Origin: a virus
Length of the DNA: 64,000 bases
Strand: one strand, 5' to 3'
IMG/VR virus record: IMGVR_UViG_3300045004_000088
Coordinates: 1-64,000 of that record
In this document: positions 9,934-63,376 of the stretch, in pieces
Layout of the letters: the number at the start of each line of letters is the position of its first letter
Position numbering within the stretch: position 1 is the first letter of the stretch
Notes under the pieces: model-generated
Seen by the model: only the letters and a program-made list of their open reading frames with translations
Databases searched by the model: none
What the model was told of the DNA's origin: nothing
Position numbers and translations under genes: made by a program

Positions 9934-9977
9934 ATCCCCCGTAAGTTGGCTCCATTGTAAGCCAACTTACGGGGGAT
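9934..9977. terminator. strong hairpin with 17-bp perfect stem ATCCCCCGTAAGTTGGC and 10-nt loop, followed on the plus strand by a T-rich tract; lies between two minus-strand genes
   Basis: Read directly. Confidence 0.45.
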
Positions 9978-9984
9978 GTGAAGA

Positions 9985-10969: not shown

Positions 10970-10970
10970 G

Positions 10971-11177
10971 TTAGCCTCGGCGATACTTGTTCTTGTTGTT
11001 GGGGCTGTTACGGCCGACATGGTAAGTACCGCACCAGCCGCAGAAATAGACGTGGCCCTTGTAAGAAGGATCGAGTCGAAGGAGGCTGCGGAGTTGTGCT
11101 TCCGCAGCCCCTTCCGAGTGACAGTGTTTGCCGGTGTGACGACACCGTTTCACAGCCTCTCTCCCGTTCCGTTGCAT
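10971..11177 (-). CDS. small Cys/His-rich putative zinc-binding protein (68 aa), paralog of the 11610-11984 gene
   Basis: ATG; motif CxxxGKxxH[ST]E...GHV..C..CG..HVGR is shared with the downstream paralog. Confidence 0.5.
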   Translation of the reverse strand: MQRNGREAVKRCRHTGKHCHSEGAAEAQLRSLLRLDPSYKGHVYFCGWCGTYHVGRNSPNNKNKYRRG

Positions 11178-11779
11178 TCACCGCACTTCGGGGAACCCCA
11201 CGGGTGCGCGGGCGAGCCGACGCCGCTGCCGTCGCACGCCGAACACACGGTCAGTTGGAACTTGCCGACGAGGTTGGCGAACACTTGGAGGTGATCGACC
11301 AGTTCGTCTTCTGGCATCTTGTCGAGGTCTTTACCGCCGGTCCTGCGAATGCTCGTGTGCGCCACGTCGGGCGGGAACGGGGCGGCGTTGAGCATGACCG
11401 TGTACGTCGTGGTGAGCGGGACCACCGAGTGCCACGTCAGCGGGTTGACGATCTCGTAGGCCGAGTGTTCCCGCAGAATGAACTCGGCGACCTGTCCGGG
11501 CGATTCGTCGGTGCGATCCTTGCTGAAACCCACCTTCATCCGGTAGGCACCCTGAAGGATGATGAAGGCACCGGGCCACGGGTGCGGGTGTGCGAACGCT
11601 TCGTGCGTGTCACACGGGTTGAACTTGTGGAGACAGATCCGATCCCCATTCTCCAGAGTCGTGAAGACCCGGTAAGTGTGGGGTTTCCGGCGGTTGACAA
11701 TCAAGCTGTCCCACTTGCTCCGGTCCTTCAGTAAGGCCGGTAATGTAGATCGTAATGCGTGATCGAGTGAGTCTAACAC
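11150..11779 (-). CDS. cupin-like protein with C-terminal DnaJ-type zinc finger (CSACDGSGVG / CGECNGTGE); GTG start
   Basis: HPHPW cupin-like segment and two CxxCxGxG repeats read directly. Confidence 0.5.
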   Translation of the reverse strand: MLDSLDHALRSTLPALLKDRSKWDSLIVNRRKPHTYRVFTTLENGDRICLHKFNPCDTHEAFAHPHPWPGAFIILQGAYRMKVGFSKDRTDESPGQVAEFILREHSAYEIVNPLTWHSVVPLTTTYTVMLNAAPFPPDVAHTSIRRTGGKDLDKMPEDELVDHLQVFANLVGKFQLTVCSACDGSGVGSPAHPWGSPKCGECNGTGERL

Positions 11780-13201: not shown

Positions 13202-13716
13202 TTCTTGTCTCCGTCAAAGGCTTTGAGGGCGGCTTCGTCCAGACAGTAGACGACGGTCGGATTCGGGTTGATCTCGACCTTCCAATTCGTCAGCTTCGGC
13301 GCACCTTCACAACGGTGGTTGTGGCTGATGATTACCATGCCGCCTTCGTGCCGGGTGTACTTGGTCTTCCCGCACTGAATCTCGCGAGCGATCTGGAGGC
13401 GTTGCGGAGTCGGCAGGAGTTCGACCGGGCAGCAGACCGTACAGAAATCCTTGCGATATTTGCCGTGCGGCAGTCGCGGATCGTTGAAAGCGACGGTCTT
13501 CGGGCCGAGGACCGCGACTTGGATCGGCCAAGTGATTTCCTTCTTTTCGAGAAGGTCTTCGATGTCTTCGTGGTAGAAGTTCACGACATCGGCGTAGCTG
13601 CCGTCCGCGAGCCTGACCGAGAAGCAGTTGTTGAAGCCGAGGAGGGTGCAGCTTTCGATGTTGACGGCTTCGGCCGTTTGGAAGTCGCAGCCTTCGGGGA
13701 CGAACTCTGTTCCCAT
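13198..13716 (-). CDS. hypothetical Cys-rich protein (172 aa)
   Basis: ATGA overlap with the AAA+ gene; GGAGA RBS. Confidence 0.55.
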   Translation of the reverse strand: MGTEFVPEGCDFQTAEAVNIESCTLLGFNNCFSVRLADGSYADVVNFYHEDIEDLLEKKEITWPIQVAVLGPKTVAFNDPRLPHGKYRKDFCTVCCPVELLPTPQRLQIAREIQCGKTKYTRHEGGMVIISHNHRCEGAPKLTNWKVEINPNPTVVYCLDEAALKAFDGDKK

Positions 13717-13736
13717 TTGTGTCTCCGGTTAAAGAA

Positions 13737-13773
13737 AATGCCAGCAGGCCAACCGAAGTCGCCTGCTGGCATT
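13737..13773 (-). terminator. intrinsic terminator: 13-bp stem AATGCCAGCAGGC, loop, GCCTGCTGGCATT, followed on the minus strand by TTCTTTAA
   Basis: Read directly; downstream of the 13908-14282 gene. Confidence 0.55.
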
Positions 13774-13907
13774 ACGGACGGGTGCGCACCCGCTACGGCA
13801 CCGCCTGCCGCCCGCTGACTTCCCCAAAGTGCCAACGATGCCCTACTTCGTCGGTTAAACCGCTTTTCGGGACAACATCCCACGCCAGCGAAATGGGACT
13901 AGGGGCT

Positions 13908-14282
13908 TCACTTGTCTTTCTTGTTCACCTTGATCGTGTCTTCCGGCGGCGAACCCGTCTTCATGTCTTTGGCCTGATCCAACCCACGGTAGTACCCGGC
14001 ATGCCAGAGTTGGTTGCCCTCGTACTCGTTCGGCTTCTGGCCGGTGATCACCGCGAGCATGCCTTCGATCTTGCCGTTCTGCCGCGCGAGTTCGAGAGTG
14101 TTCTCGGTCTGCCGCTGGTACATCGTCATGGTGAAGTCGTTCATCTGCTGCTGTTGCAGCTTGTCCTTCTGGTCGATCAGCAGGACCGCCTGTTGCAGCC
14201 GGTCGTTCTGGTGCCGCTGGTACAGGTTGTAGCCGACCGAACACAGAAGGATCGCGACCACTGCCCACGTCGTCTTGTTCAT
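13908..14282 (-). CDS. membrane-anchored coiled-coil protein with Gln-rich segment (124 aa)
   Basis: ATG at 14282 with AAGGA RBS; N-terminal hydrophobic segment; the track extension was rejected. Confidence 0.55.
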   Translation of the reverse strand: MNKTTWAVVAILLCSVGYNLYQRHQNDRLQQAVLLIDQKDKLQQQQMNDFTMTMYQRQTENTLELARQNGKIEGMLAVITGQKPNEYEGNQLWHAGYYRGLDQAKDMKTGSPPEDTIKVNKKDK

Positions 14283-42258: not shown

Positions 42259-43692
42259 ATGTCTTGTAACGCAATTTGTTTGCCAGAATATCAATGTGGT
42301 GATCTACAAAAAATAAAGCCCAACACTGGCGCGGTTTACGCACCATTTGTGACAATGACATTGGGTGGAACTATCACCGTTGGTAACAAATCATTCCCAG
42401 GAGAACCCAACACAGCCTGCATCAAATCTTTTGAATTTGGCGGCTCGACTGGTGCTGGCTGTACTGTAGAAATAATTGATGAATCTGGTGGTAGTTTTGT
42501 GAGATATTTCAATGCAGTTAACAAAAATTTATGTCAAGCCGCCGATGATCACAATATGGAAATTAACTTTGGATGGATCTCCAGATCGACAGATGGAAAT
42601 TTAACCAAAATCGGAATTCCTGAAGGGCCGATATTTTTCATACCCGGAAAAATAGAAAGCGTGTACGAAGGAGGTGTTATAAAATACACGTTGAATGGAA
42701 CCGATATGTTAACCCACATGGCAGAAAGTCGCGTGCAAGTACCTGTTGGAACAGAATCAAATAAAGTTAGATTGATGCCGGCGGTAAGAAAAATGGCGTC
42801 AAGAAATTGTCCACCACTCAATAACATCAGATATTTAAGACGAAATGGACCAAATCTAACTGAATGGAGATTCAAAAATAGTGATGGCGGGCCAGAGGGT
42901 CCAATGGGAGTTTGGCAGGGAGATCAACAAAATCCTATTTCGGCCATGAGAAAATTTTTCAATTCCTTGACGACAGACCGTAATAAAGGATTTTATGCTA
43001 TTTGGAACTCTGGGTCATCAGTTCCAGAACTTTGGTTCATGGAAGATTCGCGACCATATTGTGACGAAACGTCTAATGGATTTTTTTGTGCTGGAACTTA
43101 CATTGTAAACGGAGGAGATTGCAGCCCTGTAATTAGCTTTAACCCAAAAGCAGAATGGCAATATACTGCTGATCTTAATTCGGGTGGTAACTTGGGAGGT
43201 GCCACATCTGCTAAGAATATAGAACAACGACCGCCAATAGAACAAAGACGAAGCGGGAATTGTAAGGACATAACCACTACTCAACGTGGTGCTGGTACTA
43301 CAACACAATTCGCCGCACCACAAAACGACATCAATTGGCGGTCGCCAGATCAAATTACTCCAAAAATGCAAAAAGCTATGGCGGAACACGAAACGGCGGC
43401 ACACTACAAAGAGCTGCAAGCGCCTATGGAAGCCGAGTTAAAAATACATGGCGACACAAGCTTTGTCCATCAATCGCGATGGGCCGATGCTGTTGTTTCG
43501 ATAATCGTAATAAATCCATTTCAAATTTTTTCAGGTGGTTCATACCACGAATGGCTCGCCGGGCCAATGTGTAACCCAATTTTTTCAGACAAAGAATGGA
43601 TGATAAAAGGTGTTAACCATCAAATTTCTGATGGAGCTTATACTACGACCTTAAAAGTACAATGTATGAATGTAAACAAGACTGAACAATAA
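42259..43692 (+). CDS. tail/baseplate protein (477 aa, AT-rich gene; positional analog of Mu gp43 or P2 gpD)
   Basis: Position and size; sharply lower GC than neighbouring genes. Confidence 0.5.
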   Translation: MSCNAICLPEYQCGDLQKIKPNTGAVYAPFVTMTLGGTITVGNKSFPGEPNTACIKSFEFGGSTGAGCTVEIIDESGGSFVRYFNAVNKNLCQAADDHNMEINFGWISRSTDGNLTKIGIPEGPIFFIPGKIESVYEGGVIKYTLNGTDMLTHMAESRVQVPVGTESNKVRLMPAVRKMASRNCPPLNNIRYLRRNGPNLTEWRFKNSDGGPEGPMGVWQGDQQNPISAMRKFFNSLTTDRNKGFYAIWNSGSSVPELWFMEDSRPYCDETSNGFFCAGTYIVNGGDCSPVISFNPKAEWQYTADLNSGGNLGGATSAKNIEQRPPIEQRRSGNCKDITTTQRGAGTTTQFAAPQNDINWRSPDQITPKMQKAMAEHETAAHYKELQAPMEAELKIHGDTSFVHQSRWADAVVSIIVINPFQIFSGGSYHEWLAGPMCNPIFSDKEWMIKGVNHQISDGAYTTTLKVQCMNVNKTEQ

Positions 43693-46252: not shown

Positions 46253-47811
46253 GTGAATGCCCTTTCAACGTAGAACCGTTCTCACAGTCCGGCCCGCTGG
46301 CGGCTCCGAACGTCGTCAACCTGAACTACACGAACCAAGACTTTTGGTCGATGAAGTCGCGGCTGATCGACTTCATCAAATCGAATTTCCCCAACGACTT
46401 CAACGACTTTGTCGAGTCGTCGCTGGCGATCATGTTGATCGAGAACTGGGCGTTCATTGCCGACACCTTGTCCTTCAAGATCGACCAAATCGCCAACGAA
46501 GTTTTCATCGACACCGTCACCGAGGTCGAAAACGCATTCAGACTTGCCAAATTGGTCGGCTTCAATCCGCAACCGCCGATTGCGGCGCGGTCGATGTGGT
46601 CGGCAACACTGAACAACCCGGTGCTGGCAGACGTTACCATCCCGGCCCCGTTCGACGTGACGGTGACGGCCGGAAACGAGTCCATCAGCATCGAGCTTTT
46701 CCCCGCCGACGCTGACGGGAACCCGATCTACGACCAAGACATTCTGATCCCCGCCGGTACGGTCGTGAACAACAGCGTGGTGGGTCTTGAGGGGTTCACT
46801 TACACCGACACGTTCCCCGGAACCGGCTTGGTCGGGCAGACCTATACCCTCAGCTACTTCCCGGTGATTTTCGACAGCATTCGCGTGGACGTGGACGGCG
46901 TCAGGTGGACCCAGGTGGAACAGTTCACCGACTCTCAACCCCGGCGCGAGTACAGGGTCGAGTTCAACAGCCTCTGGCACGCTTTCATCATCTTCGGCAA
47001 CAACCGGGCGGGCCTGATTCCGTCGCAGGGATCACAGATTGTTGTCACATACCGGAAGGGCGGCGGGACGGTAGGTAACATCGTCACACAGTCGATCACG
47101 TCGGAAACCGTCGTGCCGCTACCCGGTTTTGAATACTCCGTCCCGGTCGGCCTCAGCAACTACACGCAGGGCCAGTTCGGGTACGACGGCGACACGGTTG
47201 ATGACGTTCGCAGCAAGCTGCCGGCTTGGTTGGCGCTTCAGAACAGGTGCGTGACGGGTTCGGACTACAAGACGTTCGCGGACCAATTCGCCTCCCCGTA
47301 CCAGGGGCAGACGGGCAAATCGACGGCGGTTCTGAGGAACCAGGGGTGCGCGGCCAACGTCATCGACCTTTATGTTCTGGTTCGGGGGACCACGCCGTCG
47401 TCCGCGAACGATCTGCAACTCGCTTCGAGTCAGTTCAAAGCCGAACTCGGTGACGCGATCTCACAGGTCCAGATGTTCACGGACTTCGTCTGCATCAAAG
47501 ACGGGTCGATATTGCTGGTCGATGTGTCAATCGACGTGGTCATGAACAAGTTCTACAAGAAGTTCGAGGACCAGTACCGGACGATGGTGACGCAGAAAGT
47601 CGCGTCCTTCTTCTCGCTGCCGAACTGGGAATACGGCAAGTCGCTCAGGCAAGAAGACCTCGGCAAACAGTTGTCAACGATCCGCGAGGTCAACAGGTTT
47701 GAAATGAACTTCATGACCAACGACCCCGAAAACAGCGGCGTTCTGGTGACCGCCAACTACAAGCAGATCATCCGCCCGGACACGATCACAGTAACATTTG
47801 TATACGAGTGA
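46249..47811 (+). CDS. baseplate J-like protein (520 aa)
   Basis: ATGA coupling to the gp25-like gene; size and position. Confidence 0.5.
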   Translation: MSECPFNVEPFSQSGPLAAPNVVNLNYTNQDFWSMKSRLIDFIKSNFPNDFNDFVESSLAIMLIENWAFIADTLSFKIDQIANEVFIDTVTEVENAFRLAKLVGFNPQPPIAARSMWSATLNNPVLADVTIPAPFDVTVTAGNESISIELFPADADGNPIYDQDILIPAGTVVNNSVVGLEGFTYTDTFPGTGLVGQTYTLSYFPVIFDSIRVDVDGVRWTQVEQFTDSQPRREYRVEFNSLWHAFIIFGNNRAGLIPSQGSQIVVTYRKGGGTVGNIVTQSITSETVVPLPGFEYSVPVGLSNYTQGQFGYDGDTVDDVRSKLPAWLALQNRCVTGSDYKTFADQFASPYQGQTGKSTAVLRNQGCAANVIDLYVLVRGTTPSSANDLQLASSQFKAELGDAISQVQMFTDFVCIKDGSILLVDVSIDVVMNKFYKKFEDQYRTMVTQKVASFFSLPNWEYGKSLRQEDLGKQLSTIREVNRFEMNFMTNDPENSGVLVTANYKQIIRPDTITVTFVYE

Positions 47812-47814
47812 GGC

Positions 47815-50800
47815 ATGGCAGAGAAAACAATCTATGAGGTGCCGAGTGTTACGGATACGGTGGTCATTCCTTTCTTGACCCCCGACGCCGACCAATGCTT
47901 GCTCCAGAACCCCTACATGGTCAACAACCTGACCATTTACTACATCGAACGCGACTTCTCAGGCGGCAACGTCACGCAATTTGACGTTGAAACCCGGAAC
48001 CAAGACGCGGAGCGGGCGGCGACCGAAGCACAGAACGCGGCGTGCCTTGACCCGACTCAGGAGAACATTCTTGAGGCGCGAAAACTACGCGCCCAGGCCG
48101 ACTCCATGAGGGTTTCGCGACCCGTGTATTACAACGACGCCGTCCCCGTTGCGGTGATCGGCAACTCGTCTTATCCCGCTTGGCTCTCGACCGACACACC
48201 CAACGCTCTCATCGAAAACGTACCGCTTGACGAGGAAGGTAACACCGTATACGGCCACTTCCAATACGTTTGGAACCCGGTGGGTATGCGAGAGGGCAAC
48301 TACATCGCGTGCTGGACGTGGACGCCCCTCGCGGCCGGGGAAACGCTTTCGCAAAACCTTTCCTTCTCGTTGATGGGCAACAACGCCATCACCACGAGCA
48401 TCCCGACCCACGCCACGCCGCCGGAAAAGTACCAAACTCTGCTGGACACATACCTCCCAGAGATGTACAAATCCACGCTCTCCGAAGACGACGTGACCCC
48501 GTCCGTTCTGACCAGATTCAACAAATCGGTCGGCCAGGGGTTCACGGTGTTGGAGAATCTCGCCAACCAGATCTTGGACATCATGGACGCCAACTCGACT
48601 GACGAGGCGTTCTTGGGCCTTCTGGGGCGGATGTTCGGGCTGAAGCTGAGGAGCGAAGACCCGACCCGTTGGCGGAAGCAGATCAAGTTGGCGGTGCCGC
48701 TTTACAAGATGAAGGGAACTCGCGCCGGGCTGGAGATGGCGTTCGATTTGGCCGGCATGAGGATGACGAGCTTGGTTCGCGGCTGGCAGATCATTTCGCC
48801 GTACACATGGGTGGAAACCTTCAAAGCGGCCGGCGGCGAAATGGAGTTCGTGCTGTCCCGTGTCGCACAACCAATTGATTCAGACAACTTTGAAGTGTCC
48901 GTCAGAAAGGCGGGCAACTCGTACTACACGGACTACCTGCCATCAGACGTGTCGATCAACACATCGGACGGCGTCAGCACACTAACGATTGAGAACAACA
49001 TCTCGCTCGAAAACGGCGACATCCTTCGAGTGCTGTACCAGTACGCGGCGATCCCGAACCCGACGCAACAGGACATCGAGGACTACATTCGTTTGTTGCC
49101 GTTGACCGATCAGCGGGACGAAACGGTTCAGGACTACCCGCCGAAAAACTGGAACGTTCGACTGCTCGAAGAGAACGACCCGTTGTTTTCGATCTTGATT
49201 CCCAACAAGCACCCGTACCACGACTTCTTGGTGTTCGGTAAGATCAGGACCGAGTTCCCGTACAGCGAAAACGTCTATAACATGGACGAATACAACGGCT
49301 CGATTAGGGACAGTCTCGAACCGTGCGACATGGACAAGGACTTCGTTGACCCGTGCAGCCAGTGCTTGGGCAGCAAGTACATCATCGACATTGAAGTTGA
49401 CCGCCTTTGCGACGACCGGGTGAACGAGGCCAAAGACATCCTGAAGGAGTTCGTCCCGTTTCACGCCCTGCCCCAGACCATCAACTTCAGCGGCTCGATG
49501 GAGGACTTCGTTCAGCCGCCCGTCGAGACGATTGAGTGCCTGATTTACTATCGCGGGAGCGAGACAGTAATCGCCGGCAGCGATCAAATGGTCTTCAACC
49601 GCGCGATGATTCCGAGCGGCATGCCGCTCGACCAAATTCTGAGAAACACCCTCGCTACGAGTACGCTCGTAGCGAGCGGAACCGCCACAGCCTACAACAG
49701 ACAGATCATGTTGTTCTCGCCGGACGTTCCGATCAGCAACACCGGCCTGAGTACCGACCCGACCGAAACGGTGCTAGAAATCTACGGCCCGCACCCGCAC
49801 GCCGGTAACTACCAAGTCACCAACGCGGTCGGACACGCGGTCGAAGTTTACGGCCCAATCTCGCCGACATCGCCATTGACGGAGCCGATCAATCAGTCGG
49901 CCTTCTCGTTCAGCCTGTCGAACATCATTTACGAAAACTCCGACACCTCCATTGTGACCGACAATTTCTACAAGTTGAAGGACGCGACTTGGGACTTGGC
50001 AGAACTGGGCGTCAAGAGCCAGTGGGACGTTGACAACGGGTACGCTACGACGGCCTGGACGATCAAGATGACGGCGTACAGTGCCACGCCGTACACGATC
50101 CAAGACATAAAGCCCGAAGGCGAGATCGTGATCGCTCAAGACCCTTCCCTGCCAAACGTGAACGCGACGGGTGTGGCCTATTCGATCATCCGCCCGGACG
50201 CGAGCGTGGCACACACAGGCACCTTGAATTTGTCGGTTGAGCTTCGCGGACTGGTAACTGTCACGGACGGGGTGCTGACCGACGTTCGCGGGGTAATGAT
50301 CCAGCCGCTCGCGGGGCAATACTTTTTGTACTACAACGATACCGGCGACCAGTACGTCGTCAGTGAATTGGTGGACGGCGAGACACACCAGTTTTACATC
50401 AACGGCTGGTCGGGCGGTTCGGTGGGCGGAAAGAGTATCGCTTTGTATGATCGGCTGATCGATACGCGGTACGGCTTACTTACTTATCAGGGTATCGGCC
50501 TGAACACGGTGATCAACTACGAATCGTCGTTGGGCATCTCGAACGGCCAAAACCCGGTACTGGTTCCGCTGGAAGACAGCAAGTTCAAAGAGAACTTCAT
50601 CGTCGTGATCAATGACCCAGTCAACGGGGCGGATGAAGAGACTTTTGCGATTGCCGACATCGACGGGACTACGATCACCCTGGACGGTGACATTCACTAC
50701 TGGACGACTTTGGGTAACGGGGGGACGAGCGTGCCGTTCGAGATTTACAACTACGAAACTCTTCCGGTGACTGTGGCGGGCGTGCCGTTCCAGCGGCTCG

Positions 50801-50970
50801 ACCGGCGGAACTCGGAAGTGATCACCTCCGTCACGGAGACGATGTCGCCGATGGCGATGAGCATGGCAGCCGCCCCAGAGCCGGGGTTCTCTGACTTTGT
50901 GAAACAAGAAGAGAAAATCAACTTCCGCATTGATTACGCGGACGGAACAGTCGAAGAGGGGAGCCTATGA
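47815..50970 (+). CDS. large baseplate wedge / tail fiber protein (1051 aa)
   Basis: Position in the baseplate operon; size. Confidence 0.5.
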   Translation: MAEKTIYEVPSVTDTVVIPFLTPDADQCLLQNPYMVNNLTIYYIERDFSGGNVTQFDVETRNQDAERAATEAQNAACLDPTQENILEARKLRAQADSMRVSRPVYYNDAVPVAVIGNSSYPAWLSTDTPNALIENVPLDEEGNTVYGHFQYVWNPVGMREGNYIACWTWTPLAAGETLSQNLSFSLMGNNAITTSIPTHATPPEKYQTLLDTYLPEMYKSTLSEDDVTPSVLTRFNKSVGQGFTVLENLANQILDIMDANSTDEAFLGLLGRMFGLKLRSEDPTRWRKQIKLAVPLYKMKGTRAGLEMAFDLAGMRMTSLVRGWQIISPYTWVETFKAAGGEMEFVLSRVAQPIDSDNFEVSVRKAGNSYYTDYLPSDVSINTSDGVSTLTIENNISLENGDILRVLYQYAAIPNPTQQDIEDYIRLLPLTDQRDETVQDYPPKNWNVRLLEENDPLFSILIPNKHPYHDFLVFGKIRTEFPYSENVYNMDEYNGSIRDSLEPCDMDKDFVDPCSQCLGSKYIIDIEVDRLCDDRVNEAKDILKEFVPFHALPQTINFSGSMEDFVQPPVETIECLIYYRGSETVIAGSDQMVFNRAMIPSGMPLDQILRNTLATSTLVASGTATAYNRQIMLFSPDVPISNTGLSTDPTETVLEIYGPHPHAGNYQVTNAVGHAVEVYGPISPTSPLTEPINQSAFSFSLSNIIYENSDTSIVTDNFYKLKDATWDLAELGVKSQWDVDNGYATTAWTIKMTAYSATPYTIQDIKPEGEIVIAQDPSLPNVNATGVAYSIIRPDASVAHTGTLNLSVELRGLVTVTDGVLTDVRGVMIQPLAGQYFLYYNDTGDQYVVSELVDGETHQFYINGWSGGSVGGKSIALYDRLIDTRYGLLTYQGIGLNTVINYESSLGISNGQNPVLVPLEDSKFKENFIVVINDPVNGADEETFAIADIDGTTITLDGDIHYWTTLGNGGTSVPFEIYNYETLPVTVAGVPFQRLDRRNSEVITSVTETMSPMAMSMAAAPEPGFSDFVKQEEKINFRIDYADGTVEEGSL

Positions 50971-51443
50971 AAACCGAAGACCAAGTGCAATGTATCGGTT
51001 GGGTCGAAGCCGTCATCGAATACAAAGACGGCCGCAAAGACACTTTGCGGTTCAACAACAGCGTCATGAGGCGGGGACGGGCGGCTCTGGCCGCAGCCCT
51101 GAGCAACTCCCTTAGTGACGGGTTCAATTTCTACGTCAGCCGAATGATTTTCGGCGACGGCGGCACGTCCGGGGGCGTTCCGAAGTTCGTTGACACGAAC
51201 AGGAACGGCCTTTACGGTTTGACGCGGGCGAGTAAGCCCGTCGTGGCGAGCGTGGACCCGACGACCCCTAGCAAAGCCGTGTTTACCAGCGTGTTGACGT
51301 TTAACGACGCCAACGGGTACGCCCTGAACGAAATGGCGTTGGTAATGAACAGCGGCGACTTGTACAGTCTGGCGACGTTCCCAGACCTCAACAAGACTGA
51401 CGCCATGCAGATCACATGGTCTTGGTCGGTTAATTTTGTCTAA
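50967..51443 (+). CDS. small tail-associated protein (158 aa)
   Basis: ATGA coupling. Confidence 0.45.
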   Translation: MKTEDQVQCIGWVEAVIEYKDGRKDTLRFNNSVMRRGRAALAAALSNSLSDGFNFYVSRMIFGDGGTSGGVPKFVDTNRNGLYGLTRASKPVVASVDPTTPSKAVFTSVLTFNDANGYALNEMALVMNSGDLYSLATFPDLNKTDAMQITWSWSVNFV

Positions 51444-51460
51444 AATAGCTTTTGAAAATA

Positions 51461-51470
51461 CTATAATACC
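51461..51470 (+). promoter_or_regulatory. CTATAATACC (TATAAT -10) 3 nt upstream of the ATG of the homing endonuclease gene, no SD
   Basis: Read directly. Confidence 0.45.
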
Positions 51471-51473
51471 TGC

Positions 51474-52493
51474 ATGAAGAATTTATACCCGCAATTGACT
51501 ACCCGTCAGCATGAGATATTCATAGGAAGTATGCTTGGCGATGGCTGTCTTAGCCGTCAACCTGTTAACTGGAATTGGCTGATTCAGCAGAGCTTTGCCG
51601 ATCATAAAAACTTTCCAAAAGAAAGCTACATGCAGTTTTTTTTAGATGAGCTAGGAGGCTGGTCCAGATGTGCAAAAATTGTTATGAAGTCTCATCGAGC
51701 CAAAATTATCGACGGCAAGATCGGTCGAGTGCAGTGTGAACCATATCCGACTTGGAGATATGAGTCTTGCAATCATCTGATTTGGACGGAAATGGGCAAG
51801 AAGTGGTATGCCCCTCAGTTGGTGAACGGCAGAATCAGGAAGGTCATTCCTAACGATCTCAAACTGACTCCGCTATCGATGGCGATATGGTACATGGATG
51901 ACGGGGTCAATCAAGCTAGAGACGCCCAAGCCAAACTATGCACCAATGGTTTTACCGAAGAAGAGGTTGTTTTCCTGGCGGAAGTAATGAAACGTGACTT
52001 GTCGATCAAGGCTGTCAAGTCGAGAGTCAAAAAAGACCGCAGTCAGTTTTTACTTCGTGTCAACCGTGAAGCGTATTTTGAATTCATTGACATTATAAGG
52101 CCAGAGATCAAGTGGGACTGCTTCGGTTACAAAACGGACACCTCCGGGTACGTCAAGAAAGACAACAAGGGAGCCAACCACGGAAAGTCTAAATTAAACG
52201 ACGAGAAATCGCAGGAGATTTTTCGGTTGAGGCAGATAGGTCGTTCTCGTAAAGAAGTCGCGGCCATATTTGGTGTGACCGAAGCGTGTGTGACACGCAT
52301 CGCTTCTGGGCAAGGATGGAAACATCTGGGAAACCCGATGGTGCGACAACACAAAAAAATGACCGCAGAAGACAGAACGCAAGCATTAAGGCTTCTGGCA
52401 GAAGGTAAGGATCAAGAAGAGGTCGCAAGCATTATCGGCACATCACAGTCGAGCATCAGTAGATTGTTAAACAAAAAAACGTTCGCAAAATAG
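51474..52493 (+). mobile_element. LAGLIDADG homing endonuclease with C-terminal HTH domain, AT-rich, inserted in the tail module
   Basis: Motifs IGSMLGDGCL and MAIWYMDDG read directly; C-terminal sigma-70 region-4-like HTH; GC drop. Confidence 0.65.
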
Positions 52494-52504
52494 GTGAACT
52501 TCGT

Positions 52505-52702
52505 ATGACATGCAAGAAAGAGAATGAAAATAATTTGCCGGTCAACGCGGATGTCATATACATCCCCAGTGTGATCGGGCAAATAAACAAAATTACATTC
52601 CCCAGTATCATTGTCTGTGAAGTAAACGTGCCTAGTGTGATCGTAATGGACGAGCTTGACATCCCAAGTATCATTACGGTCGATTGGGCTACAGGAGCAT
52701 AA
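52505..52702 (+). pseudogene. 65-aa AT-rich ORF made of (I/V)PS(V/I)I repeats resembling the repeat region of the 61184-63376 fiber-like protein; possible gene fragment
   Basis: Read directly; adjacent to the homing endonuclease gene. Confidence 0.3.
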
Positions 52703-53103
52703 TGAACGATTGGTTGAAGCGCAGCTATGCAAAGCAGAAAAGGCAAGCCGACAGACGTACTCTCGAAGGTATCGATGAGATCGTCAACAAATGGAAAAAA
52801 GCCGAAGACAAAAAAGAGTGGGGCGACAAGCTCGCGGTGATTTTGACGATCATGGCTCGCAACGTTATTGAGTTTGCGAAGCCGGACCTTCCTCTGGAAG
52901 AAAAGATCGCAAATCATCGCGAAATAATGAAAAGAGCGGCTAGTTCGCTCCCCTGCATAGACACGACCAGACACCGGGCTTTCACTTACCTGATGACCAA
53001 AATGTTGTGCGTGTTGCGTCAGAACACGATGACGAGAGAAGAACTACTGGAAGCACACAAGGAGTATCGTGAGTACCTTGCAAGTAAGCACCCTAGAGCT
53101 TGA
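52702..53103 (+). CDS. hypothetical protein (133 aa)
   Basis: ATG in TAATG overlap. Confidence 0.5.
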   Translation: MNDWLKRSYAKQKRQADRRTLEGIDEIVNKWKKAEDKKEWGDKLAVILTIMARNVIEFAKPDLPLEEKIANHREIMKRAASSLPCIDTTRHRAFTYLMTKMLCVLRQNTMTREELLEAHKEYREYLASKHPRA

Positions 53104-53347
53104 AGAAAACGGCAAACCGAAGCGGTATCTGGTCTTCGACAACGAAGCCTTCGACTACGAACTGAGTGAATCGGACCTCTCCCGCGCGATCATGTACTGT
53201 GGCGACGACCCACAGGCCAAGAAGACGCTGCACGGCGAGATCCAAAAGCACTTCCTCGACTGTCTCGAAGAGTTCCTCGGTTTCCCCGTGACACTGAGTG
53301 AGCTTGTGGCTGCGATCCGCGAAGGCAAACTGGAGAAGAAGCAATGA
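53069..53347 (+). CDS. hypothetical protein (92 aa; GTG or TTG start inside the upstream gene)
   Basis: ORF track; start uncertain. Confidence 0.4.
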   Translation: MSTLQVSTLELEENGKPKRYLVFDNEAFDYELSESDLSRAIMYCGDDPQAKKTLHGEIQKHFLDCLEEFLGFPVTLSELVAAIREGKLEKKQ

Positions 53348-53856
53348 ATTTCGTAGAAGAAACCGATCTGCGGTTCGCGTTGATGCCATCGACAATTGAG
53401 AACGCCGGCATGGGGTGTTTCGCCGCCGTGGATCTGAAGAAGGGCGACTACATCGAGGTGATCGGCGTCTACGTCAAGAAAGGCGGCATCGCCGACAAGT
53501 GTACCGCCTACGCGACCAGATACAAGTTCAACGGTCACGACAACCAAGAGGCCAACATCGTGCCGATGGGCTACGGCGGGATGATAAATCACACCCCGGA
53601 CACCGCGAAACAGAATGTCAAACTCGAATTCGCTCGCGGGCTGGCACGGAGAAGCAACGACGCGGGACAAGTGATTTACAGGTTCACGAGGGACATCCCG
53701 GCCGGCGAAGAACTTCTTGGGTACTACGGGGATCACAAGGAGGCAGAGCTTCAGTGGATGAACAAAGGGGCGAGCTACCACGACCGCGAGGGCGGGGCGT
53801 GGAAAGAGTTCATCGAACTCGATTATTACAACCTCGGTCTGCTCGCCAAAATCTGA
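53344..53856 (+). CDS. SET-domain protein (putative protein lysine methyltransferase)
   Basis: GMGCFAAVDLKKGDYI, MINHTPDTAKQNV (NHxxxPN-like) and GEELLGYYGD (ELxxxYG) match SET signatures. Confidence 0.6.
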   Translation: MNFVEETDLRFALMPSTIENAGMGCFAAVDLKKGDYIEVIGVYVKKGGIADKCTAYATRYKFNGHDNQEANIVPMGYGGMINHTPDTAKQNVKLEFARGLARRSNDAGQVIYRFTRDIPAGEELLGYYGDHKEAELQWMNKGASYHDREGGAWKEFIELDYYNLGLLAKI

Positions 53857-53893
53857 TCTGAACCGTAGATAAAGTAACCCGCCGAGGAGGACC

Positions 53894-54670
53894 GTGCCAC
53901 AGATTGACCTGATTCCAGTACCGCAGTATCAAGCTCTCCAGCCGTACCACGTCGATTTCGACAACCTGCCGCTGAAGGCGTTGATCACGCGGATGCAGTT
54001 GATCAACAGTGCCGTTGACATCAACTCCGACATTCTCCGACAAGCGGTCGGAAGTCAGGGTACGGTCAGCGCACGCCTCGGCCAGAGCTTGAACGACGAC
54101 GGCAGCTTGAGGGTTTCGGCGGTTGACGGCACGCTCCACAACATCGGCGCTCACGCCGATGGGACTTACGAATCCGTGGCATACGTCCGCATGAAGCTGG
54201 ATGAGCGTGAGAAATTGGCGTTGATCGCTGACGGGGCGACCAACATGACGCTAGAATTCAACACGCCGTCCGTCATTACCAGTTTTGACACCGGGCCGGT
54301 GGAATTCATCCCGTCTGACGGGGTGACGTGGAACACGGTCGCGCCGAACAAGGTTCAGGCCAACCTGACGTTCCCGATCTCTTCGGCACACAAACATTAC
54401 TACGGGATCACCCCGCAGTACGACGGAACGCCCGACTTCCAGCACTATAAGATCGGCTACCCGAACTACATCGCAGGCAGTCTGCGTGTGGCGATCAACG
54501 GTGTCAGGATTTTTGACGACGGCGATGTGTACGTCCCAGGCTCTACGGTGTCCGAAGCGTGGACACTTCAGGGGTTCACCGGGGACGAAACGACCGGCAA
54601 GTTTGTACTCATGACGCCGCTGACTCTGGACGATGTGATCCGGGTCGATTTCGACGTTGCCCTCACCTGA
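53894..54670 (+). CDS. hypothetical protein (258 aa)
   Basis: ORF track. Confidence 0.5.
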   Translation: MPQIDLIPVPQYQALQPYHVDFDNLPLKALITRMQLINSAVDINSDILRQAVGSQGTVSARLGQSLNDDGSLRVSAVDGTLHNIGAHADGTYESVAYVRMKLDEREKLALIADGATNMTLEFNTPSVITSFDTGPVEFIPSDGVTWNTVAPNKVQANLTFPISSAHKHYYGITPQYDGTPDFQHYKIGYPNYIAGSLRVAINGVRIFDDGDVYVPGSTVSEAWTLQGFTGDETTGKFVLMTPLTLDDVIRVDFDVALT

Positions 54671-54683
54671 TGCGAGCTAGTGG

Positions 54684-55232
54684 ATGAAAAAAGACACGTC
54701 ACCTGTAGTCGTCAACAAAATGGCTTACAGGCCGGTGCCTATGGACCTCGGATTCATTGTCCTGTGTTTTGACGCCGACCCGTACAAGCCCCTCACTACC
54801 CTGAGCAGCATAGATCGCGCGTACCCTGGAGCCAAAACCGAAATGGTTTCCCCTCCAGATTTCAAGCACATTCACAAGTCAGCAATTACGGGGAAGGGTT
54901 CACTGACCTCGCTGATCAACGCCGGTATGTCGAAGCCGCCGGCCGAATGGAACGTAATAGTGATGGCAGGGGTTCGAGTTAAAGAACAACTCGACAAAAA
55001 GTATTCGCCCTTCATGGAAAGCCGTCTGGACATCTTCTTCCCGCTCATCTTTGGTTTCCACAACTTCCTCGACGCTCCGATGAACGGCCTGACCATTCAC
55101 CGGGACACCTTCAAAGAGGTCGGCAAATTCGCCGACGACAACCCGCTCGAAATCTGCAAGATGATGTGGTTCTTGGAAGCCCACGGCAAGAACTGCAAGT
55201 TCAAAGCCGTCGCCGGTTGTCGGATGTGTTGA
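54684..55232 (+). CDS. hypothetical protein (182 aa)
   Basis: ORF track. Confidence 0.5.
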   Translation: MKKDTSPVVVNKMAYRPVPMDLGFIVLCFDADPYKPLTTLSSIDRAYPGAKTEMVSPPDFKHIHKSAITGKGSLTSLINAGMSKPPAEWNVIVMAGVRVKEQLDKKYSPFMESRLDIFFPLIFGFHNFLDAPMNGLTIHRDTFKEVGKFADDNPLEICKMMWFLEAHGKNCKFKAVAGCRMC

Positions 55233-55245
55233 GCATAAATAGCTC

Positions 55246-55704
55246 ATGCTCACGTTCACCCAGTGGGTCGAAACGACCCGTGTCACGATCTATACCAGCC
55301 CCCAGTCGAAAGGCGCTATGGTGGACGACACGTTCGCCGACGAGCCTGTTCAAATGCTGGACATCGACAGCATCATAAACTACGAGCGGGCCTCCAAAAT
55401 GGACCTCCCGGCCAGCCGGGAAAACATGCAGAAGATCCTTGCTGGCATCAAGGCCGGCGAGAAGATGCCGCCGGTTTACGTCCGCGAAGTGAAACTGAAG
55501 GGGAAGTCAAATCCGAGGTGGGACGGGAACAAAATGCTGTCGGTCGGAGGGGTTCCGAACTCGCGTTTCAAATATCAGATCATTGACGGGCATCACAGGT
55601 ACTGGGCGTACAAAAAGGCGGGCGTCAAAACAATACCCGCCATCGTCGTCTCGCCAGAAGACATCCAGAAGAAGAGGCTCTGGACGCCCGAAGACGAATA
55701 CTAG
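55246..55704 (+). CDS. ParB-like nuclease domain protein (YQIIDGHHRYWAYKKAGVKTIPAIVV)
   Basis: DGHHR motif read directly. Confidence 0.7.
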   Translation: MLTFTQWVETTRVTIYTSPQSKGAMVDDTFADEPVQMLDIDSIINYERASKMDLPASRENMQKILAGIKAGEKMPPVYVREVKLKGKSNPRWDGNKMLSVGGVPNSRFKYQIIDGHHRYWAYKKAGVKTIPAIVVSPEDIQKKRLWTPEDEY

Positions 55705-56321
55705 GACGCCATCCACGGCGTGTAGGCGATTTGCGCCCCGTCCCGCGTAATGCAGGGGCCGGAAGAGAACGCCAGGAAACCGCCATTCCAAGTGTACCAT
55801 TCGAGCTTGTCGCCCGGCTGCACCACCGACATGAACTTGACCATTCTCTCTTCTTGCTTGAGTTGATCGACCGTCAGCGGGTTCTCACGGGGGCGTCCGC
55901 AAGTGCGTTGGCCGCTGTTGAGGTTGTCGGCCAAGATCTTCCAGAAGTCCTCGACTTTGTCACTGAGGAACTCGATGATGTTCTCGGCCTTGCCGCCGTT
56001 GTACTCGGTGTAGAAGTATTGGAACCGCCCCGTGGCGATGTTGTCTTCTTTCTTCTTCCGAGCAGCCGCCTCGATCTTTTCCATTGCTTGTTGTTGTTCT
56101 TCGAGCAAGACCGGAATTTGATCTTCGGTGATCTGGACCGCTTTCCAGTGTTTCGTTTCGTGCGTGTAGTAGGAGCCGACCGCCATATTGTCGAACTGGC
56201 GGTGGTTGACGGTACACGTTTTCTTGTTGGAAACGTTCATCACCTCGGCCGCAACCTTCGGCGTCCCTTCGTTGACGATGCCGAGATACTGCCACACGCC
56301 GAAGTAGGGTTTGTCTGACAC
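55701..56321 (-). CDS. hypothetical protein (206 aa)
   Basis: ORF track; ATG. Confidence 0.5.
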   Translation of the reverse strand: MSDKPYFGVWQYLGIVNEGTPKVAAEVMNVSNKKTCTVNHRQFDNMAVGSYYTHETKHWKAVQITEDQIPVLLEEQQQAMEKIEAAARKKKEDNIATGRFQYFYTEYNGGKAENIIEFLSDKVEDFWKILADNLNSGQRTCGRPRENPLTVDQLKQEERMVKFMSVVQPGDKLEWYTWNGGFLAFSSGPCITRDGAQIAYTPWMAS

Positions 56322-56328
56322 TGCTGCC

Positions 56329-56847
56329 TCAGAGTAAGTTGCAGATGAAGTCCCAACGGTAGTTGTACTTCATCTCGCCGTTATGAACTTTGTCGAGGTA
56401 CTGGTAGAGTTCGTCCCAACTCCCGAACATCTGATCGTCGGGGATGAACCCAAAGTACCACAGAGGATTATACTCTTTGCCTTGCGGACAGACGAGCAGC
56501 ACGGGGTTTTTGAGTAGATTGGCGAGGAAGATCTCGTGGTGGCTGCCCGTGGTCGGAACCCCGAACGGCAGGTAGGCGATGACGAGGTCAGACCGCTGGA
56601 CCACTTGAAGGTCTTTGCGAACGAACTTACGCGCGATCTTCGCCATCGTCGCGTAGTCTTTTTCGGTACGGGCCTTCTTCAAGTCGTCGGCCCACTGTTG
56701 TTTGGGGTCGGCGTGAGGGTCGAAGACGTTCATCCCGTAGCGTTCGGTGAGCGTTTTGATGACTTCGGGACGCCAGTTTGCTTTGGCGGAACACTGTTCG
56801 ATTGGACCACTCAAATATGCCAGTTGACCGTTAAGGAAATTAGACAT
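56329..56847 (-). CDS. nucleoside 2-deoxyribosyltransferase / DNPH1-like protein
   Basis: AYLSGPI ... DLVIAYLPFGVPTTGSHHEIFLA ... VLLVCP parallels NDT motifs (YFGAGWF ... GLGMELGYA ... VLLVIP); AAGGTGA RBS. Confidence 0.5.
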   Translation of the reverse strand: MSNFLNGQLAYLSGPIEQCSAKANWRPEVIKTLTERYGMNVFDPHADPKQQWADDLKKARTEKDYATMAKIARKFVRKDLQVVQRSDLVIAYLPFGVPTTGSHHEIFLANLLKNPVLLVCPQGKEYNPLWYFGFIPDDQMFGSWDELYQYLDKVHNGEMKYNYRWDFICNLL

Positions 56848-61183: not shown

Positions 61184-63376
61184 GTGCCACAAGGATTTCC
61201 ACCACAGCCCGTTTTCCCCTTCGCGATTGACAGCAACGGGACGCTATTCCTCGTGAACAACACGACGGAGAGCCGGCTCACCGCCGACAACCAAGCGTGG
61301 TCGGACACGGTTCCCATTGCGCCCGTCGCTGCCGACGCCGACGAGATCTGGCCGGACAACGGGTTCGCCACCATTTCGGGGGAGATTCTTTACTACGATT
61401 CCGTCGAACTTGACGACAACGACAAAGTCAAGACGTTGAAGAATTGCGTCAGGAACTTGGGCGGCGTACACACCCAGTTCAACTTGGCCGGGACCGACGT
61501 GCGTGGCTTCGTGATGGCCGAACACCACAACCAGTTGGTGGAAGCGACCCTTCGCATCGAACAGTTCGTCGGGACCAACTTTACGGAAGACCAATCGACA
61601 CTCGACTGGCGCATCCGAAACCTCCAGGCACAGAACGTCCTGTTTGACGACTTCTCGTGCGTTGACGTGGTGTTCACCTTTGTAACAATTTCTACCGACC
61701 CCGCGAGCGGTACGGTAGTGAACTTCACCGTCCAACTGACCGGAGACTACAACAGCTACCGACTCGACTTCGGTGACGGGAGTTTTACCGAAAGCTTGCT
61801 GTCAGGCACGCACACCTACGCTCCGAACACCATCATCGACCCTGTTGTCACAGTGAGCAACAACAGGTGTACCGTCGCACAGACGCCGCCGGTGCGTTTG
61901 ACTCCGACCGAACCGGCCGAAATCAACACGATCACGGAGTTCTTCGTGCCGGTGTGCGAAGTGCCGGACATCCCGCCGTTGATCTTGCCCGAAATCAATC
62001 CGCCCACGGTACAGATCGGATTCCCGCCTCTGGTGATCCCGTGCGTCAACGTCAGTCCCATCGGGCCGATTGACATTCCGTCAATTGTGACGTTCGAGCC
62101 GGCAATCAACATTCCGAGTCTGATCGAATTCGGGCCGATCAGCATTCCGAGCGAGATCGTAATCATCGGGGGCGTAGACCTACCCAGTGAGATCACAATC
62201 ACCGGGCCGGAAATCCCCACGGCCATTGTGATCGAAGGCGGCGTAATCCCAACGGTCATCACGGTCGAAGCGGGCGTGATCCCCACGGTGATTACCATAG
62301 AAGGCGTTGAGATCCCCACGTCAATTGACGTGTACGACGACATCCCATCGGTGATCGAGGTGACCGATGACGTTCCGTCAGTGATCGAGGTTATTTCAAA
62401 CATCCCGACTACGATCACCGTGTACCATAACATCCCGACCACAATCGATGTTTACGCGAACATCCCGACAACGATTAACGTCTACGGATCTTTCCCGACC
62501 TCGATCAACGTCTACGGGTCTTTCCCGACCTCGATCTTGGCGTACAACGTTGACATCCCGACTTCGATCTTGGCGTACAACGTCAATATCCCGACTTCGA
62601 TCTTGGCATACAACGTCAATATCCCGACTTCGATCTTGGGGTACAACATCAACATCCCGACTTCAATCTTCGCATACAACGCGAACGTCCCCACGGTAAT
62701 CGACGTGAACTGGAACCCGGTGCCGGTTCTGAGTTGCGTGGTCACGGTCAGTTGCGGAAGTACGTCGGTGACGCCGATGGCGATGATGTCGGGCGGGTTC
62801 GAGGAGAGCTTCGTTGACAGCTTCCAGTCGGACCCTCCGCTGGTAACCGCGCAAGACATCGGCATCCCGTCCGAGATCAAGGTCGTGGTGCCGGAAATAC
62901 CGGACATGAGACTGGTACACGATCTGCCAATGTTCATCGAGGTTCGCGGAACCACGTTGCCGACCTACATCGAAATCAAGGCCGAGACGCCGATTCCGAA
63001 CGAGATCTCTTTGAAACACAACCTGCCTGAGTTCTTTGAACTGAGGGCGACTAACGTACCGGAATTCATTTTCTTGAAGAACAAGGACGTACCTGAGTTC
63101 ATCGAATTGCGAATGGCCGAGGACGTGCCGAGGAAGCTGATGATGGAGTTGGTGGGCGTACCTGAATCGATCCAACTGGTGGGTGCGCCGACCGCGATCC
63201 ACTTGGTCAGCAACGTCCCGACCGCGATCCACTTGGTCCTGCCAGAGAAGCCGGAAGTGGAAATGGTGTACCGTGGCGACCCGATCACGCACAAGGTCGA
63301 ACTCGACATGAGCAAACTACTCAGCGACGACGAGGGCGAGGGCCAGTGCGTCAGATTCGTACCGTGTAGGAGGTAA
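61184..63376 (+). CDS. PKD-domain repeat-rich tail fiber-like protein (730 aa) with long array of 10-11-aa (I/V)PTxIxVY repeats; GTG start
   Basis: RLDFGDGSFTE PKD motif; AAGAGG RBS; repeats read directly. Confidence 0.6.
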   Translation: MPQGFPPQPVFPFAIDSNGTLFLVNNTTESRLTADNQAWSDTVPIAPVAADADEIWPDNGFATISGEILYYDSVELDDNDKVKTLKNCVRNLGGVHTQFNLAGTDVRGFVMAEHHNQLVEATLRIEQFVGTNFTEDQSTLDWRIRNLQAQNVLFDDFSCVDVVFTFVTISTDPASGTVVNFTVQLTGDYNSYRLDFGDGSFTESLLSGTHTYAPNTIIDPVVTVSNNRCTVAQTPPVRLTPTEPAEINTITEFFVPVCEVPDIPPLILPEINPPTVQIGFPPLVIPCVNVSPIGPIDIPSIVTFEPAINIPSLIEFGPISIPSEIVIIGGVDLPSEITITGPEIPTAIVIEGGVIPTVITVEAGVIPTVITIEGVEIPTSIDVYDDIPSVIEVTDDVPSVIEVISNIPTTITVYHNIPTTIDVYANIPTTINVYGSFPTSINVYGSFPTSILAYNVDIPTSILAYNVNIPTSILAYNVNIPTSILGYNINIPTSIFAYNANVPTVIDVNWNPVPVLSCVVTVSCGSTSVTPMAMMSGGFEESFVDSFQSDPPLVTAQDIGIPSEIKVVVPEIPDMRLVHDLPMFIEVRGTTLPTYIEIKAETPIPNEISLKHNLPEFFELRATNVPEFIFLKNKDVPEFIELRMAEDVPRKLMMELVGVPESIQLVGAPTAIHLVSNVPTAIHLVLPEKPEVEMVYRGDPITHKVELDMSKLLSDDEGEGQCVRFVPCRR
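62340..62700 (+). repeat. array of 30- and 33-bp tandem repeats (unit such as ATCCCGACTTCGATCTTGGCGTACAACGTCAAT), at least 10 copies
   Basis: Read directly. Confidence 0.75.

Follow-up and report, generated by a model that had tools for sequence, protein, structure and literature searches.

A probable free-standing LAGLIDADG homing endonuclease element within the last codons of a baseplate/tail-collar-like gene of an uncultured jumbo phage

The DNA analysed here comprises positions 1 to 64,000 of the virus record IMGVR_UViG_3300045004_000088 in IMG/VR (64,000 nucleotides (nt); referred to below as the window), and our main finding is that its positions 51426-52493 probably form a free-standing LAGLIDADG homing endonuclease element, which lies within the coding sequence of a 158-amino-acid (aa) baseplate/tail-collar-like gene (g158) and is mobile by homing; we put the probability of this reading at roughly 80%. 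The element consists of a recoded copy of the g158 tail, a 30-nt spacer and the nuclease open reading frame (ORF), and it is placed between Trp156 and Ser157 of g158. The sequence displaced by the insertion is the last five codons and the stop codon of g158, and the recoded copy leaves the gene intact. The identical nuclease protein is present on several metagenomic contigs and, since the longest of these has 475,914 bp, the carrier is an uncultured jumbo phage. In GenBank phage DNA, megablast found no match to positions 47800-56400; the comparator sequences used throughout were drawn from IMG/VR, JGI, ENA and Logan contigs.

The insertion point follows from a comparison with insertion-free relatives, which the first-pass annotation of this DNA had proposed as a check. 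In the two contigs with an empty site, L034 (21.7 kb) and L033 (1 kb, with the same allele), g158 ends in ...TGG AGC GTG AAC TTC GTA TGA, and the junction (L034, approximately 9950-10060) includes ATGCAGATTACATGGTCTTGGAGCGTGAACTTCGTATGAGCAAC. The g158 of the window is 90% identical to that of L034 over the whole gene at the amino acid level, and the final 37 nt ahead of position 51426 contain only 2 differences from L033. From there on, the tail is recoded, with 8 of its 18 nt different from L033/L034, all of them synonymous, and with none of the six codons identical. The original tail lies downstream, in frame after the TAG of the nuclease gene, where all 15 nt are identical to the functional tail of L033/L034, and its GT-ATG-A contains the start codon of a following 65-aa ORF. 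Since the upstream tail is recoded and the downstream tail is that of the empty allele, the inserted unit is 51426-52493 (approx. 1.07 kb). The same bracketed structure of recoded tail, nuclease and displaced tail is present in two further relatives, L027 and L024. In L027, g158 ends in a tail of the same recoded type (TCA GTC AAT TTC GTC TAA) and the displaced tail 3' of the nuclease gene reads AGC GTG AAC TTT GTC TAA, while the displaced tail of L024, AGC GTG AAT TTT GTC TAA, is read in frame as the C-terminus (SVNFV-stop) of a nuclease remnant.

The first-pass annotation had described an intact 339-aa ORF with both LAGLIDADG motifs, and the profile searches bear this out. Pfam LAGLIDADG_2 (PF03161) matches aa 14-200 of the protein with E = 4.7e-21 and 75.9 bits (curated cut-off 25), over positions 2-164 of the 168-position profile; further matches are to PHROG 11023 ("homing endonuclease with LAGLIDADG motif"), with E = 2e-17, and to the PADLOC HEase model, with E = 9e-20. 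In an alignment of 13 homologues the residues G18, L21, G22, D23, G24, W139, D143 and G144 are invariant, hence both metal-binding Asp residues are kept. The best sequence matches in the PDB are I-SceI and its relative 6x1j (E 2e-6 to 2.5e-5), and I-SceI, together with I-WcaI, heads the Foldseek matches of the AlphaFold2 model (mean predicted local distance difference test score 82), with E ~1e-11 and a target-normalised template modelling (TM) score of 0.69-0.72 over ~225 columns. This predicted fold shows the two-domain alpha-beta-beta-alpha-beta-beta-alpha saddle. A C-terminal helix-turn-helix (HTH) had also been proposed; it is there, although not as a single copy but as two domains (HTH_7 and HTH_23), and the C-terminal part of the model resembles the tandem HTH of the paired-domain/Tc3 type (Foldseek, E ~7e-3). 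By motif, profile and predicted fold, the protein is a monomeric I-SceI-type LAGLIDADG endonuclease with a tandem HTH module.

The composition of the gene is foreign to its surroundings, as had been noticed before: its GC content is 0.456 and its GC content at third codon positions (GC3) is 0.515, against 0.755 in the 158-aa gene, 0.773 in the upstream 1051-aa gene and 0.757 in a downstream 258-aa gene (g258). All nuclease genes of this family have a lower GC content than their own host loci. Between L027 and L028, a partial contig limited to the 3' part of the nuclease and the junction downstream of it, the nonsynonymous divergence (dN) of the nuclease is 0.12 with synonymous sites saturated, and therefore the nuclease protein is under purifying selection.

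The earlier claim of a free-standing selfish element is supported by the states of the slot among relatives, where the gene is present or absent at one precise site in collinear genomes. The gene order of L034 is that of the window from ~41.4 to 61 kb (75-93% identity in amino acids, ~80% in nucleotides) without the nuclease gene; its g158 stop overlaps the ATG of a 75-aa ORF (ATGA), and homologues of the downstream 133-aa, 92-aa and SET-domain genes follow. The site is occupied in the window, in the identical contig L016 and in L027, where the nuclease is 68% identical to that of the window and the g158 protein 99%. In the next-closest relatives, L024, L025 and L026 (flanking proteins 59-78% identical), the box upstream of the gene and the last 56 nuclease codons are kept, the latter 59% identical to those of the window, which means that the entire nuclease domain has been lost there by deletion. 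Nine IMG/VR loci (L001-L009) share the order 520-aa gene, 1051-aa gene, g158, gap and g258, and none of the nine has the nuclease gene; the gap is shortest in L005, L007 and L008 (18-24 bp), spans 393-513 bp in five others and reaches 1132 bp in L006. Homologues with 33-39% identity (34-39% for P0004, P0005, P0007 and P0008) fill the same slot in L017, L018, L019/L020 and L021-L023, distant phages whose flanking proteins are only 40-55% identical to those of the window.

The history of the nuclease also differs from that of the flanking host genes, as judged on short segments of 56 and 76 codons. In the final 76 codons of g158, identity is 97-99% among the window, L027 and L034, the window being 99% identical to each of the other two, and L024 is at 79-80%; over the last 56 nuclease codons, on the other hand, it is L027, L028 and L024 that are mutually 82-86% identical, with the window at 59-61%. 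Because the tree of the nuclease and that of its flank are discordant, the nuclease gene has moved between phages. Additionally, a comparison of the window with L027 gives a third-position identity of 0.42 for the nuclease and 0.70 for g158, and the conserved residues that keep identical codons number 43 of 70 in g158 versus 95 of 215 in the nuclease (Fisher p = 0.013); identical-codon fractions were used here, most comparisons of synonymous divergence (dS) being saturated.

Table 1. Positions of the element, its parts, its neighbours and the two insertion sites (site A, end of g158; site B, start of g258) in the window
Feature	Position	Strand	Remark or basis
g158 body (158-aa baseplate/tail-collar-like gene) to Trp156	50967-51425	+	left homology arm, presumed left target half
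Recoded replacement g158 tail	51426-51443	+	TCG GTT AAT TTT GTC TAA = SVNFV-stop; left end of insert
Spacer, 30 nt, with -10-like box ACTATAATA	51444-51473	+	box 51460-51468, 6 nt 5' of ATG
LAGLIDADG homing endonuclease gene	51474-52493	+	339 aa; Pfam, PHROG, PADLOC, predicted fold
Motif 1, IFIGSMLGDGCL	51516-51551	+	Asp23
Motif 2, MAIWYMDDG	51879-51905	+	Asp143
HTH 1 (HTH_7), aa 238-273	52185-52292	+	Pfam
HTH 2 (HTH_23), aa 297-333	52362-52472	+	Pfam
Displaced original g158 tail	52494-52508	+	GTG AAC TTC GTA TGA = VNFV-stop; in frame after nuclease TAG
65-aa ORF (orf65), four repeats	52505-52702	+	shortened orthologue of L034 75-aa ORF
133-aa ORF (orf133), resident low-GC cassette gene	52702-53103	+	L034 orthologue
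92-aa ORF, resident cassette gene	53069-53347	+	relatives
170-aa SET-domain protein, putative lysine methyltransferase	53344-53856	+	Pfam SET, E = 3.6e-7
Empty second homing site: g258 ribosome-binding site and first 14 nt	53857-53907	+	GTG CCA CAG ATT GA at 53894-53907
Array of 22 IP(S/T)xI units, aa 263-512 of 730-aa PKD-containing fibre-like protein (ORF 61184-63376)	61970-62719	+	
Window, state of sites			site A occupied; site B empty
L024, state of sites			site A decayed; site B occupied
L034, state of sites			site A empty; site B empty

The gene may also have its own means of expression. A TATAAT box ahead of the ATG had been reported at a distance of 3 nt; the box is indeed present (51462-51467), although the distance to the ATG at 51474 is 6 nt (ACCTGC), and the 30-nt spacer holds no Shine-Dalgarno sequence. 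The longer box, ACTATAATA (pattern ACTATAWWA), occurs only once in the whole window, and its geometry, a box followed by 6 nt and the ATG, is kept in the 68%-identical allele of L027 (ACTATAATATCTGC-ATG). The remnant in L024 still has the box, and GCTATAATACA precedes a second nuclease gene in the same contig; in more distant nuclease homologues a normal Shine-Dalgarno sequence stands between box and ATG. The T4 late type of promoter, TATAAATA, was absent in the promoter search of the window. A leaderless transcript is known to be compatible with a -10 element whose end lies 7 nt ahead of the A of the ATG. It is plausible, from the position and conservation of the box, that the nuclease has its own promoter, in which case transcription would begin at or next to the ATG and give a leaderless mRNA.

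The same region contains a predicted RNA helix (window 51402-51476; L027 ~190-275), in which g158 codons (CCAUGCAGAU) pair with the start region of the nuclease (CUGCAUG). The helix has 10 bp in L027 with a significant z of -2.95, and 7 bp with z = -0.2 in the window. It would mask the nuclease start codon in transcripts that read through from upstream, but not in those begun at the -10 box.

On the reading that the element is mobile by homing, the enzyme would, on co-infection, recognise and cut the genomes of element-free phages at or near the junction between ACATGGTCTTGG and AGCGTGAACTTCGTATGA (also written as ACATGGTCTTGG joined to AGCGTGAACTTCGT), and repair from the carrier would copy 51426-52493 into the cut genome. 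The displaced tail would mark the right side of the original break, or it would act as the right homology arm. The carrier genome would be immune to its own enzyme, because the insertion splits the empty-site sequence into two and the right half, as rejoined, differs at 6 of 14 nt.

Several points weigh against this reading. The target site is deduced from the insertion junction alone, and many free-standing homing endonucleases of phages (e.g., Seg and Mob of T4) cut away from the point at which their genes are inserted. The closest comparators are ~80% identical in nucleotides, so that no very recent homing event is documented, and only short stretches (76 and 56 codons) entered the incongruence test, as the contigs L027 and L028 measure just 1.2-1.4 kb. 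A single simple conversion tract does not account for the strong divergence of the 65-aa ORF right beside an identical 15-nt tail. As for expression, the window contains 4 TATAAT sequences against 3.4 expected, which is no enrichment, no -35 partner was called for the box, and the sigma-70 scan returned no full promoter at 51462; since these consensus searches are negative, what argues for a promoter is the conservation of the box beside the nuclease genes of this family.

That 65-aa ORF had been described in the first-pass annotation as AT-rich and composed of repeats like those of the 61184-63376 protein, and taken at the same time for donor DNA co-converted with the nuclease or a fibre-gene fragment displaced by the insertion. 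The ORF and the likeness of its repeats stand: it has four (I/V/F)PS(V/I)I units at a spacing of 10-12 aa (against 22 units in the 730-aa protein, where the spacing is also 10-12 aa except for 17-18 aa at the first two), and in the six-frame translation of the window [IV]PS[VI]I is found only in the 65-aa ORF (three times) and in the 730-aa ORF (twice). The displaced fragment does not stand, as L034, a phage without the nuclease, has an intact 75-aa orthologue in the same position, and no significant DNA similarity links the 65-aa ORF with the 730-aa gene. BLASTP between the two proteins gives E ~1e-3 with 32-39% identity, and for a profile of the small repeat ORFs the 730-aa protein is the best non-self ORF in the window, albeit with only E = 0.04; as far as their sequences tell, the two are related only at the level of the repeat motif.

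Relatives of the 65-aa ORF are found in L024 and L028 (with the frame disrupted in both), in L006 (116 aa) and as P0026-P0028. Compared with L033, the copy in the window has a 15-nt deletion just past its start, by which a conserved xWxxRK motif is lost, and an 18-nt deletion that removes one repeat; it has 55% amino acid identity to the orthologue of the empty allele. An origin by co-conversion appears doubtful to us, though there is something to be said for it. Right of the insertion, identity to the empty allele drops to 35-62% in nucleotides and is back at ~80% within ~250-300 nt, only 7 of the 34 conserved residues of the ORF keep identical codons against ~55% in all flanking genes (binomial p = 4e-5), and its N- and C-terminal stretches look, by eye, nearer to the L024 and L028 versions. 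However, repeat-rich sequence misaligns easily, which inflates apparent divergence, and the empty allele is matched in all 15 nt that separate the nuclease gene from the 65-aa ORF. The low GC content of the 65-aa and 133-aa ORFs was also considered as a sign of co-transfer and rejected: the nuclease-free L033 is equally low there, so that this feature is resident and not tied to the nuclease. On these comparisons the 65-aa ORF is a resident gene outside the nuclease element, and what the insertion did was to switch its upstream context from g158 to the nuclease gene.

The frame of the repeat ORF is disrupted in two lineages that carry the nuclease gene. The orthologues of L024 (6503-6739) and L028 (~880-1120) need a frameshift to be read through, and the position of the break is not shared (that of L028 is at a GGGGG run), whereas those of L034 and the window are open; this suggests either independent decay or assembly errors.

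A nuclease gene that is a vertically inherited resident, no longer mobile, with the present, absent and remnant states produced by deletion only, is an unlikely explanation. It is in keeping with the occurrence of nucleases of 34-39% identity in the same slot of phages whose flanks are 40-55% identical, which fits long co-residence, with decay by internal deletion in L024, and with the lack of a comparator closer than ~80% nucleotide identity. Against it stand the discordant nuclease and flank trees among the window, L027, L024 and L034, the excess synonymous divergence of the nuclease relative to the adjacent g158, and the invariant catalytic residues with dN far under dS. Moreover, the empty allele could have arisen by deletion only if the recoded tail and the nuclease, and nothing else, were removed and g158 were rejoined in frame to the displaced tail.

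Even less probable is a domesticated, non-cutting regulator of the neighbouring tail and accessory genes, similar to the bacterial protein WhiA, in which two LAGLIDADG domains are likewise followed by an HTH. The two C-terminal HTH domains, the annotation of the protein in JGI as "predicted transcriptional regulator", and a Foldseek match to WhiA (3hyi, E = 3.5e-6) as an architectural analogue would agree with such a role. WhiA, however, no longer has the catalytic acidic residues and is conserved as a chromosomal gene, whereas the nuclease of the window is a sporadic low-GC insertion in which both Asp residues and the GDG/DDG motifs are invariant in 13 of 13 homologues; its gene shows neither the loss of the catalytic acids nor the conserved, single-copy, vertical inheritance of WhiA. 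The fold matches to I-SceI and I-WcaI (E ~1e-11) are better than that to WhiA, and the sporadic distribution, the decayed copy, the foreign composition and the recoded target region are hallmarks of a selfish nuclease.

A group I intron or an intein in g158, with 52494-52508 as the second exon or C-extein, is hardly credible even though LAGLIDADG genes are usually encoded in introns or inteins and the downstream tail is perfectly conserved and in frame with the nuclease ORF, as g158 is already finished by the upstream copy, stop codon included, the nuclease ORF opens with an ATG of its own beyond that stop (so that an intein is excluded), a TGG-to-GTG splice would lose Ser157, the insert contains only 48 nt of non-ORF sequence, and an Rfam scan of 51000-53200 at E <= 10 returned two chance hits and no group I or II intron (no match of the RF00028 type). 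The nuclease gene therefore lies within neither an intron nor an intein.

Among known systems, the closest enzymes are I-SceI and I-WcaI, encoded in group I introns of yeast mitochondria, which belong to the same Pfam family (PF03161) and share both catalytic Asp residues with the protein of the window. The WFMDDG motif of I-SceI has its counterpart in WYMDDG. Unlike these organellar, intron-encoded proteins, the gene in the window is a free-standing phage gene, and its product has ~120 extra C-terminal residues, which make up the two HTH domains, and an identity of ~20-22% to I-SceI and I-WcaI. The only matches in GenBank phage records, which cover the nuclease core (aa 9-209), come from Acinetobacter phages (vB_AbaM_IME285, XC1 and others; PHROG 11023); these LAGLIDADG proteins have 24-25% identity, do not possess the C-terminal HTH pair, and belong to unrelated phages and a different context.

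Free-standing homing endonucleases, "intronless homing" and islands of homing endonuclease genes ("HEG islands") have been described in T4-like and ICP1 phages (PMC10448857). The present case resembles them in that the gene stands free between structural genes and encodes a nuclease at one end and DNA-binding domains at the other, in its sporadic distribution, in its position at an exchange boundary, and in the clustering of nucleases in one module (here in L024). It differs in family, being LAGLIDADG where the studied free-standing examples from phages are mostly GIY-YIG, HNH or T5orf172, and in position, since the insert lies inside terminal codons. Because it is bracketed by two copies of the g158 terminus, the insert probably splits its own target, in place of cutting in a neighbouring gene.

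The layout of host gene, nuclease gene and C-terminal duplicate is common to the element in the window and to the mitochondrial cob and atp6 genes of Endoconidiophora resinifera, where the gene is followed by one or more nuclease genes and a partial C-terminal duplicate (PMC6279837). In contrast to the fungal case, the duplicate in the window is only 15-18 nt long, the host is a phage, the recoding of the contiguous copy is purely synonymous, and a mirror-image insertion at a 5' end is found in an adjacent gene of a relative, L024. The atp6 element of Allomyces is also a nuclease insertion with a duplicated C-terminal gene segment.

This mirror-image insertion defines a second site (site B in Table 1). 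In L024 (7888-8813) the LAGLIDADG gene P0010 interrupts g258 precisely behind its first 14 nt, and the order there is the original ribosome-binding site and head of g258 (GTG CCA CAG ATT GA, the same as in the window), GCTATAATACA, a Shine-Dalgarno sequence and the ATG of P0010. The 3' end of P0010 overlaps a recoded g258 head, TTG CCG GCC ATA GA, which is joined to the body of the gene. By pairwise identity, the nucleases of the window and L027 form one clade (A), to which L028 and the L024 remnant were added from the C-terminal comparison, and P0004-P0008 form another (B), to which P0010 is nearer than to A.

Between the two sites lies a cassette of the 65-aa repeat ORF, the 133-aa ORF, the 92-aa ORF and the SET-domain protein. 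The last two are 88-91% identical in amino acids to L034 and 69-73% to L024 (88% and 69% for the SET-domain protein alone), with a host-like GC3 of 0.71-0.75. The 133-aa ORF, with 83% amino acid identity to L034, 35-38% to a 135-aa ORF of L024 and background-level synonymous divergence, is low in GC in the nuclease-free phage as well (GC3 0.63) and has no family match in Pfam, PHROG or PADLOC. Among the cassette genes PADLOC found no defence or anti-defence match, the nuclease itself being its sole match. One could imagine that the two sister LAGLIDADG lineages, A at the last five codons of g158 and B at the first five of g258, act as a paired vehicle which would move the bracketed cassette between jumbo phages by co-conversion, with the ORF that mimics the fibre repeats as fibre-modulating cargo, but we regard this as rather improbable.

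Small ORFs in the slot between g158 and g258 that are otherwise unrelated have in common an N-terminal motif, M(K)N(x)W(L)x(R/K)K. There are four copies in L006 (10445-11576) and two each in L024 (6503-6770), L028 (~880-1162) and L034 (10001-10260); in the window, the 133-aa ORF carries it as MNDWLKRSY (52702-52730), and the 65-aa ORF lost it by the 15-nt deletion. The motif could serve as a functional tag, or it could be a hotspot at which recombination shuffles the cassettes.

The wider module has, 5' of the nuclease, a Phage_base_V protein, a gp25-like protein (annotated as such in L016), the 520-aa protein, the 1051-aa protein with a weak match to P2 gpI, and g158 with its weak tail-collar match (Pfam Phage_tail_fib, E = 3.4e-4, under the curated cut-off); on the 3' side there follow the 258-aa protein and three PKD-containing proteins of 336, 754 and 730 aa. 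Further nuclease genes occupy this module in L024: an endonuclease VII gene (106-474) before the gp25-like gene, another LAGLIDADG gene (10674-11444, minus strand) between homologues of a 172-aa and a 243-aa gene, and a GIY-YIG gene (13327-13965) between homologues of the 336-aa and 754-aa genes. The window has no inserts at these three junctions.

Other variable spots were seen nearby. At 55246-56321, between a 182-aa gene and a nucleoside deoxyribosyltransferase-like gene, the window has a 152-aa ParB_N-like protein (E = 2.3e-6) and a 206-aa minus-strand ORF, and since this pair is absent in L001-L009 and L024 and present in L034, it is another variable accessory insertion. In L030 (213-771; OFRO01028060) ~560 nt separate the 1051-aa and 158-aa genes, which overlap by 4 nt in the window, and this gap may represent a further slot for insertions. 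The patch of low GC content at 42-44 kb was tried as a second mobile gene and rejected. It holds a 477-aa ORF (42259-43692) with a GC3 of 0.33 versus ~0.75 elsewhere and no family match, which is conserved and syntenic in relatives (27-43% amino acid identity in the IMG/VR loci and 75% in L034); going by these comparisons, it is a resident gene that evolves fast and lies between tail genes and the gene of the Phage_base_V protein.

Free-standing homing endonucleases in the structural modules of phages are already known, and the present case adds no new principle to them. What it offers is an unusually full series from uncultured jumbo phages, in which one site is seen empty, occupied, allele-swapped and decayed at nucleotide resolution, together with a candidate target sequence for a new I-SceI-like enzyme with a tandem-HTH module, which could be of interest to meganuclease engineers. 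The layout in which an insertion replaces the terminus of its host gene and displaces the old one, known from fungal mitochondria, occurs in phages too, and the junction between g158 and g258 is a recombination boundary in the baseplate and fibre module.

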